IMG/VR virus record: IMGVR_UViG_3300021091_000050
Source of the DNA: an uncultured virus (IMG/VR IMGVR_UViG_3300021091_000050)
Lineage: Duplodnaviria; Heunggongvirae; Uroviricota; Caudoviricetes
Strand: one strand, 5' to 3'
DNA: 64,000 nt
Shown here: piece after piece, positions 437 through 20,022 of the stretch
Layout: the number at the start of each line of letters is the position of its first letter
Position numbering within the stretch: position 1 is the stretch's first letter
Program-made: the position numbers and the translations under genes
Notes under the pieces: generated by a model
What the model was told of the DNA's origin: nothing
Database searches by the model: none
What the model saw: only the letters and a program-made list of their open reading frames with translations

Positions 437-630
437 GTCGGACAGTAGCGCACGCGAGCAGCGTCTCGGTGTCGGGGAACGCGACCTTTACCCCTGAGGG
501 AACCTAGGGGGTAACGGAAATAACGGTTCCCCTGTAACGCCCGCTCCGCGGGGCGTTGCAGGAAAGATGGCGGAGACCCACGTGGGGGTGTGGCGGCTAT
601 CTTGCCGCCGCCCCCACGGGGTTTACTGCA
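437..630 (+). ncRNA. candidate structured ncRNA (cassette 1 cargo)
   Basis: Occupies the cargo slot with no ORF over ~31 aa; stems 474-480/526-532, 488-494/508-514, 533-542/551-560, 581-588/611-618, 592-597/604-609; closing 443-448/623-628. Confidence 0.6.
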
Positions 631-2886: not shown

Positions 2887-3210
2887 ATGAGCGACAAGCC
2901 CAAGGTGACTGCTAAGGCAGAACCGAACCGCAAGGTGAACCTTGCGGAACTGCAAGGAAAGATTGCCAAGAAAGGCAAGCCCCCGTACCGTGACCCTGCG
3001 TTGGCGCAAGACCTGCTGACTCTTGGTGATGGCGAGGCAATCTTGTGGGTTCAGGCAACCGTGAACGTCACGGGAACCGACCCCAAGGCAATCAACGCCG
3101 AAAAGATGAAGTGGCGCCAACGTGCTATTTCGGTTGCCGAGGGTGTGAACCTCAAGGTTCAGATCAACTGGTCAACCAATGGCGAGATGTACATCTCGCT
3201 CAAGAAGTAA
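2887..3210 (+). CDS. small basic protein, paralog family A copy 1, leaderless (cassette 6)
   Basis: ATG 7 nt after -10; KVNL..LQG..KKGKPPY.D.ALA and RQRA.SVA shared with the next two ORFs. Confidence 0.9.
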   Translation: MSDKPKVTAKAEPNRKVNLAELQGKIAKKGKPPYRDPALAQDLLTLGDGEAILWVQATVNVTGTDPKAINAEKMKWRQRAISVAEGVNLKVQINWSTNGEMYISLKK

Positions 3211-3224
3211 AAGAAAGGAAAAAG

Positions 3225-3256
3225 AAAAGGGAACCCGAAAGGGTTCCCTTTTTTTT
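3225..3256 (+). terminator. intrinsic terminator, cassette 6
   Basis: AAAAGGGAACCC-GAAA-GGGTTCCCTTTT; identical to 4502-4534. Confidence 0.9.
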
Positions 3257-3462
3257 GCCCAAAGTCGCTGGCGTTCTGGTCGCGCTAAAGCGCTTTGAAC
3301 GCCAGCGCTGTTGGACAAACCTTTGGTCTCTCTTTATTACACAATTACTAATTCCTTGTAATAATTTAATATTACTCACAATATGTAATCGGGCTGGCGT
3401 GCGAGCGTGTCTTCAGCGCGCTTAAACGCCAGCGGAATCGTACTCATCTATTCTTCATTTTT

Positions 3463-3491
3463 AGTGCATTTCCAAACCCGCTGGGTATAGT
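3463..3491 (+). promoter_or_regulatory. cassette 7 promoter AGTGCA-N17-TATAGT
   Basis: Conserved motif and spacing. Confidence 0.8.
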
Positions 3492-3498
3492 TCTAGTC

Positions 3499-3825
3499 GT
3501 GGCAACACAACAGCCGACCGCTAAGGCGGAGGCAAACCGTAAGGTGAACCTGAAAGACCTGCAAGGCAGTTTGTCTAAGAAGGGCAAACCTCCCTATCAG
3601 GACAAGGCACTAGCGGCAGACATTCTGTCGCTGGACCCAAACGACGCTAACGACGCATTCGTTTGGTCAAAGGCGGCGGTCGTTCTGACGGGAGACCCAA
3701 AGAAGGACAACGCCAACAAAATGCTGTGGAGACAGCGCGCCATTTCGGTTGCAAAGGCTACGGGTATCGTAATCCGTATTCAATGGACCAATAATGGAGA
3801 AATGGTTATTTCACGTAAGGGGTGA
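3499..3825 (+). CDS. paralog family A copy 2, leaderless GTG (cassette 7)
   Basis: GTG 7 nt after -10; clear similarity to 2887-3210. Confidence 0.9.
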   Translation: MATQQPTAKAEANRKVNLKDLQGSLSKKGKPPYQDKALAADILSLDPNDANDAFVWSKAAVVLTGDPKKDNANKMLWRQRAISVAKATGIVIRIQWTNNGEMVISRKG

Positions 3826-3839
3826 AATAATCAAAAAAG

Positions 3840-3870
3840 AAAGGACCGCCTTCGGGCGGTCCTTTTTTTT
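3840..3870 (+). terminator. intrinsic terminator, cassette 7
   Basis: AAAGGACCGCC-TTCG-GGCGGTCCTTT then T-tract. Confidence 0.9.
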
Positions 3871-4075
3871 GCCCAAAGTTGCTGGTGTTCTGGTCGCGCT
3901 AAAGCGCTTTGAACACCAGTTTGTTTGTCTTCAAGTTGGGGTATGGTTTATTACAAATTTACAATTTACATGTAATAAATTACATGATGTTTCAAATCCT
4001 AATTCGATTGGCGTGCATGGAGGCTTCAGCTCCATTGTGCGCCAACCAAATTGGACTCTAATGGTTATTATTTTT

Positions 4076-4104
4076 AGTGCATATCTGGGGTCACTTGTTA
4101 GAGT
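4076..4104 (+). promoter_or_regulatory. cassette 8 promoter AGTGCA-N17-TAGAGT
   Basis: Conserved motif and spacing. Confidence 0.75.
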
Positions 4105-4111
4105 AGTACCC

Positions 4112-4486
4112 GTGAGCACAAACAAGGTGACCGCTAATGCGGAACCAAAGAATACTCATGGCAATACCCCGAATGTCCGAGTCAACCTTTCCCAAATGGC
4201 TGGCAAACTTTCCCGCAAAGGAAAGCCTGCATACAAGGATGAGGCATTGGCAAAGGATATTCTGTCGCTAGACCCGACCGACCCCAATGATGCTTTCACC
4301 TGGGGAAAAGCAAAGGTTTCCCTTGTGGATGCCAACGGCGAGTCCCGTGACGAAGCCCAAATCAATAAGGAAAAAATGAAGCACCGCCAGCGAGCATTTT
4401 CGGTCGCAAAGCAGTTGCAAATCGAAATCCGTGTGATTTGGATGGTCGATGGTCAAATGGTCATCGCACTCAAAAACGACAAGTAA
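4112..4486 (+). CDS. paralog family A copy 3, leaderless GTG (cassette 8)
   Basis: GTG 7 nt after -10; homology begins here; start revised from 3794. Confidence 0.9.
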   Translation: MSTNKVTANAEPKNTHGNTPNVRVNLSQMAGKLSRKGKPAYKDEALAKDILSLDPTDPNDAFTWGKAKVSLVDANGESRDEAQINKEKMKHRQRAFSVAKQLQIEIRVIWMVDGQMVIALKNDK

Positions 4487-4501
4487 TTAGAAAGGAAAAA
4501 G

Positions 4502-12263: not shown

Positions 12264-12728
12264 TTAATCAAAATCAAAAACTACACGACCAACAGATGTT
12301 TTCATTTCCCCATTGTCAAATACATTTTTCCAAACGTGCCCATCTTCTCCACGCCAAACAATATAACTATTATCTCTTACATATGGCGCGATGACTCCTA
12401 GGAATAAATCTTGTTGACCGGTTTTATCATCGTAATGTAAATTAATTATATTTCCATATTCATCAAAACTAAGATCAAAACCAAGGCTTTGTAGTATCTC
12501 TGTTGCTGTCTTCAATTTTGCTGGATAATCTGCATCCATCCAAGAAAACCATTTTTCTGGGTGATAATCTAAACCAGCAGGTCTAGAAGATTTTACATCA
12601 GGACCAAAACGGCCTCCTGATTTGAGTTTGTCATACTTGTTTAACAAACACATATCTTTGTATGCTGATGGAAAGTGGCGCTTACTCATATAAAAATCAA
12701 CTTCTTCTGTGCTAATGTAATACCCCAT
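12264..12728 (-). CDS. hypothetical phage protein
   Basis: AAAGGA RBS; WRGEDG..W motif. Confidence 0.75.
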   Translation of the reverse strand: MGYYISTEEVDFYMSKRHFPSAYKDMCLLNKYDKLKSGGRFGPDVKSSRPAGLDYHPEKWFSWMDADYPAKLKTATEILQSLGFDLSFDEYGNIINLHYDDKTGQQDLFLGVIAPYVRDNSYIVWRGEDGHVWKNVFDNGEMKTSVGRVVFDFD

Positions 12729-12760
12729 TATGTTTCCTTTCTGTTGTTTACTTTATAAAG

Positions 12761-12835
12761 TACCGCATCAGGGAATTGAACCCTGCAAATGGATGTTTAT
12801 AAGACATCTGTGTTCAACCAGCTCACCCATGCGGT
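12761..12835 (-). tRNA. tRNA-Ile(TAT)
   Basis: ACCGCAT/ATGCGGT acceptor; GATGT-CTTATAA-ACATC anticodon arm; CAGGG-TTCAATT-CCCTG; D-arm atypical. Confidence 0.8.
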
Positions 12836-19600: not shown

Positions 19601-20022
19601 TATGCAATTAACTTTCTCAAATGATCCATCAAAGGACCACTTGCTGTGACATCTTCATCAAATATAGAATCTTCACCACTAATTTCGAGTGCGGAACCAA
19701 TAATCTTTGAATCCTTTACAGAAGCAGCAAGCATTAAACGTACTCGTCTACGTTCTGGATTTTTACTTGGTGCTATTTCTTCATCACTATCATTATTAAT
19801 TGGCGCAGCCCAGCCATAAGTAATAAGGCCAAGATAATCGAAACTGGCATGGAGTTTGTCGTCATCAACATCATCAATTAGTGAATAAATATCACCATGT
19901 TGGTGAATTAATTTAAATTCAAATTGATTATTAAGACTATTAAGCCCATACATTTTTGCATTTTTTTCATTACGATCAAACAAAAGTGTTTCGTGGATTT
20001 GTTCAAGAATTGTATTGTTCAT
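19600..20022 (-). CDS. hypothetical protein
   Basis: GWAAP..PS..PERRRVRL motif. Confidence 0.7.
   Translation of the reverse strand: MNNTILEQIHETLLFDRNEKNAKMYGLNSLNNQFEFKLIHQHGDIYSLIDDVDDDKLHASFDYLGLITYGWAAPINNDSDEEIAPSKNPERRRVRLMLAASVKDSKIIGSALEISGEDSIFDEDVTASGPLMDHLRKLIA

Follow-up and report, generated by a model that had tools for sequence, protein, structure and literature searches.

An array of short, promoter-led cassettes in an uncultured lake-water phage contains one unit that carries the promoter of its neighbours and no gene. This gene-less cassette, at 397-630 of the window (the whole 64,000-nt stretch of DNA analysed here), is real and an orphan, and it probably yields a small RNA of putative function. 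Judged from the sequence, a discrete and stable transcript is likely made from position 437, and the chances that this RNA is under selection look about even. The reading we favour, tentatively and with somewhat less than even confidence, is that of a young, lineage-specific, stand-alone early noncoding RNA of ~190 nt that would act as a protein-binding decoy.

The window takes in positions 20034-84033 of the linear virus record G001 (85,125 nt; 82% complete), and sequence of this phage is present in 24 sequencing runs, all of lake-water DNA and none of RNA. It codes for DnaE, RecA, DnaB, a primase and tail proteins. The terminase shares ~38% identity with its counterparts in large Streptomyces phages (127/132 matching records), making an actinobacterial host likely, and the nearest other phages found share at most 83% terminase identity. 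Two tRNA genes have the anticodon TAT, which is rare in bacteria (window 12760-12835, minus strand; L175:17085-17158, plus strand).

A gene-less unit in an array of cassettes

The window opens with a GC-rich island of 4.6 kb (42-56% vs ~33% elsewhere) made of repeated units. The array comprises 10 of them, i.e. eight cassettes with a CTTCAG repeat counted in the window and two more that start upstream of it. Each is laid out as a TTGAATA-type box, a CTTCAG-centred inverted repeat, a TTTTAGTG box, a -10 element, a start 7 nt further on and an end hairpin, a layout that suggests expression early in infection. The inverted repeat occurs in 8/8 window cassettes (333-370, 691-730, 1181-1221, 1643-1683, 2181-2221, 2782-2821, 3394-3434 and 4007-4046), where none would be expected. 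It lies 47-48 nt ahead of the promoter box and outside the predicted transcripts, shows compensatory changes between copies and has equivalents with different centres in related phages; it could be a DNA hairpin or a protein site that marks early promoters.

The contents of the cassettes turn over almost completely between related phages. ORF 838-1077 is 90% identical to P0002 (16 cluster members), which comes from the same lake runs and has different flanks, indicating that cassette genes move between elements; genomes were searched with P0002 for a host, and its carrier was not found among them. The ORFs at 2887-3210, 3499-3825 and 4112-4486 code for three paralogous proteins of ~100 aa, whose family is multicopy in most related arrays; the family has no Pfam match, and its confident structure model (pLDDT 80) has an uncharacterised viral protein as its sole structural match. 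In run X19, a contig fuses 3211 to 4489 across near-identical terminators and skips 3212-4488; either two cassettes may have been lost naturally or the assembly took a shortcut.

Many cassettes have, by eye, a leader hairpin with GAA facing AGUA right before the Shine-Dalgarno (SD) sequence (L176:2939-2965, L291:12030-12065 and 12655-12685, L337:5790-5830, L339:3775-3810, L296:12925-12950, L331:8335-8365). We take this hairpin to resemble a loop E or sarcin-ricin motif, and a shared protein-binding site is possible. One cassette of a relative (L331:6690-6840) has a 150-nt leader with a 15-bp closing stem, followed by an ORF.

In the gene-less unit, the TTGAATA-type box common to the cassettes (repeat family D18, recognised by its position relative to the promoter) lies at 297-309 on the plus strand, as do all features of the unit described below. 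The inverted repeat at 333-370, with its CTTCAG centre intact, reaches -11.6 kcal/mol as DNA (siblings -8.7 to -16.9) and precedes the promoter box by 47 nt, compared with 48 nt in nine siblings. The putative promoter (397-429) consists of the TTTTAGTG box at 397-404 and a TATAGT -10 at 424-429. Upstream hairpin, spacing and -10 are as intact as in the coding siblings, and the initial annotation had likewise called the promoter intact. The predicted +1 is position 437, which reads GTC and lies 7 nt after the -10, and the predicted ORF-less transcript of ~190 nt would span 437-629. The likeness of this start to the leaders of cassettes 796 and 2286, also claimed at the outset, holds for the offset, which is shared as well by the leaderless starts at 1286, 1748, 2887, 3499 and 4112. 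It does not hold for the bases, as GTC alone is common and 437 reads GTCGGACAG instead of GTCAGTAATAAC.

Three other assemblies agree with this sequence, which is not an assembly error: L166 and L167 are identical to it over the RNA, and L171 differs by A565G alone, the only variant seen, at an unpaired position. Elsewhere, the same three assemblies vary at 2692, 2699 and 2705, inside the end hairpin of cassette 2286, where the changes at 2692 and 2699 seem to compensate each other.

The absence of a gene was assessed with a permissive rule, under which a unit must hold an ORF of at least 30 aa that is SD-led or leaderless and ends 100 nt before the next promoter box. Nine of the ten units in the phage's own array pass and 397-630 does not; no SD-led or leaderless ORF of that length ends within it, in line with the original description of a cassette without a gene. 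Across 11 related arrays 95/96 units pass, the sole failure being an end-of-array box (the count excludes four hits in which one promoter had been given a second box, and for G010 and L255 the arrays were inspected only by eye). That a single unit lacks an ORF against such a background counts in favour of a noncoding RNA.

Fold of the predicted RNA

The region 437-630 has a minimum free energy of -108.1 kcal/mol (z -5.5). Strong structure had initially been offered as the distinguishing mark of this RNA, and the value is real but typical of cassette ends: the final 190 nt of each of the window's eight coding cassettes give z -3.3 to -9.1. The argument from folding therefore fails its control, and of the initial case for a noncoding RNA it is the discrete transcript without an ORF that stands. 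The end hairpin accounts for ~60 of the RNA's 190 nt; with it left out, 437-573 gives z -2.1, and fixed windows over the RNA body range from -0.3 to -3.5. The best inner stretch (474-566, z -4.5) was picked after the fact, and 8/204 windows of 93 nt from 26 cassette ORFs reach z -4.5 or lower, these coming from 5/26 ORFs. Per base, the ORF immediately upstream is the stabler one (-0.58 vs -0.45 kcal/mol per nt). In two ORFs of the array, 1-234 and 1286-1543 (-0.58 and -0.45 kcal/mol per nt, with windows down to z -6.1), one long hairpin follows another, and the models suggest that their mRNAs may be armoured against nucleases.

The predicted fold is a series of three or four hairpins, three of them stable, and not the set of nested helices within a closing stem that had been proposed; the stem 443-448/623-628 has a probability below 0.004 and costs 4-6 kcal/mol. 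From the 5' end, a weak hairpin (441-473; z +0.8, no better than shuffles) is followed by hairpin 2 (474-532; z -3.6), in which most pairs have probabilities above 0.9 and an asymmetric internal loop rich in A lies at 518-523. Next come hairpin 3 (533-560; 10 bp, 8-nt loop, z -3.7), a linker of purines and an end hairpin of 25 bp (570-629). This last hairpin is the longest of the array (-48.7 kcal/mol vs -23 to -34 in the siblings) and stands at the place of their terminator-like hairpins, without a long U tract.

Hairpin 3 could also serve as stem 1 of an H-type pseudoknot at 533-575. The candidate stem 2 (544-575) would join loop 544-549 to 570-575 by six Watson-Crick pairs, with 561-569 as a long loop. 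Such a geometry, found after the fact, arises in 4-6% of shuffles, and stem 2 costs 3-6 kcal/mol of nested structure. Only 1 of 38 comparable hairpins in six arrays has a loop partner of this kind, the other 37 having none. The pseudoknot is possible according to these models, and together with the longest end hairpin of the array it counts for a functional noncoding RNA.

In our best reading, the host RNA polymerase would start at G437 early in infection and stop past the end hairpin, giving an RNA that would be stable because its ends are folded like those of the sibling mRNAs. Almost fully paired, it would work by shape, as a decoy for a host RNA-binding protein or a defence nuclease, with the A-rich bulge of hairpin 2 and the possible 533-575 pseudoknot as contacts. 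A CsrA-type sponge was considered and rejected, as 6 GGA in 196 nt compare with ~5 estimated from composition.

Origin of the slot and competing readings

No homologue of the RNA was found. Rfam 15 gives no match at gathering score, only four chance hairpin matches (E 0.47-8.9), in agreement with the initial annotation, which had recognised no family. Blastn over phage and plasmid collections returned chance matches of 25-30 nt, and blastn plus nhmmer over 329 loci found no homologue. A covariance model (R1), weak for being built on two near-identical sequences, matched only the RNA itself over 100 loci, 0/50 virus records (a scan without a positive control) and 0/151 genomes of the phylum of G060. 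A pattern scan of viral sequences gave 61 single matches and no array, another gave none, and one of metagenomes gave 11 matches, four being this phage and seven unrelated by eye. Of 62 viral and 16 genome matches from pattern scans, only 1/78 obtained a score with the model (L355, E 0.038), and it was rejected because it lies antisense to a long ORF and folds at only z -1.2. An apparent homologue proved to be the phage's own cassette two units upstream, and short matches in L146, L309, L317, L327 and L051 were set aside as coding or unrelated sequence, which one in L325 probably is too. Given how completely cassette contents turn over between relatives, this absence points to a young or lineage-specific RNA without implying that it is inert. 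Along with coding neighbours that fold as strongly, the lack of a homologue nevertheless counts against the best reading.

The promoter at 397-429 is closest to that two cassettes upstream (39/46 nt; 27-33 for the others). A 15-nt word at 455-469, in the frame of a 20-aa micro-ORF, is likewise part of the ORF of that upstream unit (19638-19652 of G001; E 0.013 in its own record), a shared length reached by 1/2000 shuffles. Beyond this word, the RNA body does not align to the upstream cassette (19/200 shuffles score equally). A second short match links 560-575 to the tRNA-Ser(tga) that the phage itself encodes, whose 5' end agrees in 15/16 nt (3/1000 shuffles) or 16/16 in L171 (0/1000). The remainder of the tRNA does not align (269/2000 shuffles), and the match, obtained after about a dozen target sets had been tried, is only suggestive. 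A degenerate or permuted tRNA is not supported, as only 16 nt match. The probability of acceptor-like pairing in the RNA is ~0, and ARAGORN finds no tRNA at 437-630 by default and merely an untyped minus-strand call in a relaxed run. These alignments give the unit the look of a patchwork that fills a duplicated slot; the promoter two cassettes upstream was probably duplicated to create the slot, which was then rebuilt.

The same history could have left nothing but a transcribed relic—a duplicated cassette stripped of the ribosome-binding site and of most of the gene, with leftover hairpins and an inert RNA. We consider this rather unlikely, and it is the alternative that survives best. The related promoter and the in-frame word fit it, as do sibling ORFs that are equally folded and the absence of the RNA from all relatives searched. 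One frame, that of the micro-ORF, is moreover open for 75 codons save a single TGA, behind which lies a 31-aa ORF (567-662). The word and the coding-like first 20 codons thus weigh against the best reading. A relic is harder to reconcile with the missing alignment past the word, with the stretch 498-569, which scores as noncoding (3/74 in-frame pieces score equally low), and with a read-through peptide that has no real relative, its one match among 1.8 billion proteins being of low complexity (E 3.5e-4). The promoter parts, too, have diverged and yet are intact, which counts for a functional noncoding RNA in an array that may lose cassettes by recombination.

Improbable in our view is that the product is a leaderless 20-aa peptide encoded by the micro-ORF (435-497), with 498-629 as a protective 3' UTR. 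The initial annotation had named this ORF the only leaderless coding alternative; it is present, and with the 31-aa ORF at 567-662 it is not the only coding alternative. Its codon score (0.32, mean of real ORFs 0.34) is equalled by 54/500 shuffles. Five siblings are leaderless, and cassettes of equal unit size with ORFs of 33 aa exist in G002 and G004, but the ATG of the micro-ORF precedes the predicted +1 by two bases and is spaced 5 nt from the -10, where all five leaderless siblings have 7. An ATG at -2 is also common where the true gene begins further downstream (11/92 automatic promoter calls in relatives, some of which took the wrong hexamer), and this counts for a noncoding RNA, as does the noncoding score of 498-569.

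The origin of the slot also allows a bolder version of the decoy, which we rate as a long shot: a new counter-defence RNA recently pieced together from a cassette ORF and the 5' end of tRNA-Ser, which would fold with a pseudoknot and, as a decoy, draw off a ribonuclease toxin or an RNA sensor of the host. The tRNA-like bases overlap those of the candidate pseudoknot, and as both features were found after many looks and in the same bases, they count against the best reading as well.

Slightly less probable still is a base-pairing sRNA that would act on a host mRNA or stable RNA via the weakly folded 5' 37 nt or the linker at 561-569. The weak folding of the 5' part would suit such a role, and an RNA that relatives appear to direct against 23S rRNA (see below) is absent from the 85 kb of this phage (in a record that is 82% complete), making a replacement conceivable. 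The predicted RNA offers little unpaired sequence, its complementarity or mimicry to rRNA is at chance for the E. coli set and one actinobacterial set, and its own record holds no antisense match over 10 nt; this favours action by shape over base pairing. The likelihood is lowest for a cis element, a leader or attenuator either for the 31-aa ORF 567-662 or for read-through into the next cassette, as an AGGA before ATG 567, two pairing options for 570-575 and an end hairpin without a long U tract are set against an ATG that abuts a hairpin of -48 kcal/mol with a 3-nt spacer, an ORF that runs through this hairpin to end in the next cassette's boilerplate, is unlikely to be translated and has no exact counterpart in the protein collection, and a next cassette with its own promoter.

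Known phage RNAs and a 23S-complementary element in relatives

Two reports describe abundant stable noncoding RNAs from the early Pleft promoter of the cluster A mycobacteriophages L5, D29 and StarStuff (PMC5712189) and an ORF-free noncoding RNA of the Pleft type in Rhodococcus phage WC1 (PMC10986025). By analogy, the 437-629 RNA seems most similar to these ORF-free early transcripts, with which it would share an actinophage setting, an early-type promoter of its own (active, if the sequence is read correctly), the absence of an ORF, a mechanism that is not known and poor conservation (PMC5712189, PMC10986025). Pleft RNAs are described there as ~500 nt long, processed, abundant, toxic and located at the genome end (PMC5712189, PMC10986025), whereas the RNA considered here is ~190 nt long, occupies one array slot and is a prediction. 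No sequence match to the Pleft RNAs was found in the phage collection.

RNA decoys as such have precedents in phages (PMC3475682, PMC10651486). With pseudo-ToxI of phage TE, a mimic of a type III antitoxin, the predicted RNA shares the decoy idea, a possible pseudoknot and a purine-rich long loop; ToxI consists of 36-nt tandem repeats (PMC3475682), in contrast to the one 43-nt candidate found here, whose first stem has 10 bp. There is no internal repeat family in 437-630, no Rfam match for the RNA and no known toxin. The RNA anti-CRISPRs (Racrs) are likewise small phage RNAs with their own promoter among accessory genes, but they are mimics of solitary CRISPR repeats (PMC10651486). No Rfam CRISPR repeat family matches the 437-629 RNA at E up to 10.

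Phage SPO1 has a host-takeover module of single-promoter units. That of Kayvirus also resembles the present array in being an array of small orphan genes, each with its own promoter (PMC7698491). Unlike in these modules, every unit here also has a hairpin upstream and a leader that forms a hairpin, and one of the units is gene-less.

Related phages have a conserved ORF-free element, preceded by a -10 and followed by hairpins. It comes after a conserved small gene that lies upstream of the island. The element was located at L150:14740-14890 (minus strand) and, on the plus strand, at L146:17750-17860, L296:11510-11610, L312:9510-9630, L317:12520-12620, L291:8785-8900 and L255:8055-8170, and others exist. 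Its core, in 13 distinct versions, pairs with 15-29 nt of 23S rRNA within 1911-1942 (E. coli record L340) when pairing is extended from a 12-nt core with one mismatch allowed, a target that we take to be helix 69-71. The copy in G010 matches the 23S genes of 5426/5426 E. coli genomes. The element is a candidate phage small RNA against the intersubunit region of the ribosome, the alternative being an rDNA-like DNA site. The 437-629 RNA has no such complementarity of 15-29 nt near 23S 1911-1942. The literature searched contained no paper on the element and no description of the 437-629 RNA. Four short motifs and two record numbers were absent from the part of the supplements of PMC10690425, a catalogue of structured viral RNAs, that was searched, and the rest of these supplements may list either RNA. 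Conserved and directly testable, the 23S-complementary small RNA looks like a stronger lead than the 437-629 RNA.

If the counter-defence reading is true, early cassette arrays would act as nurseries in which not only proteins but also functional RNAs are newly formed. More generally, if the 437-629 RNA is functional, it would bring an RNA into the set of early host-takeover tools known from abundant, uncultured freshwater actinophage-like viruses, and would represent an RNA gene caught near its birth.
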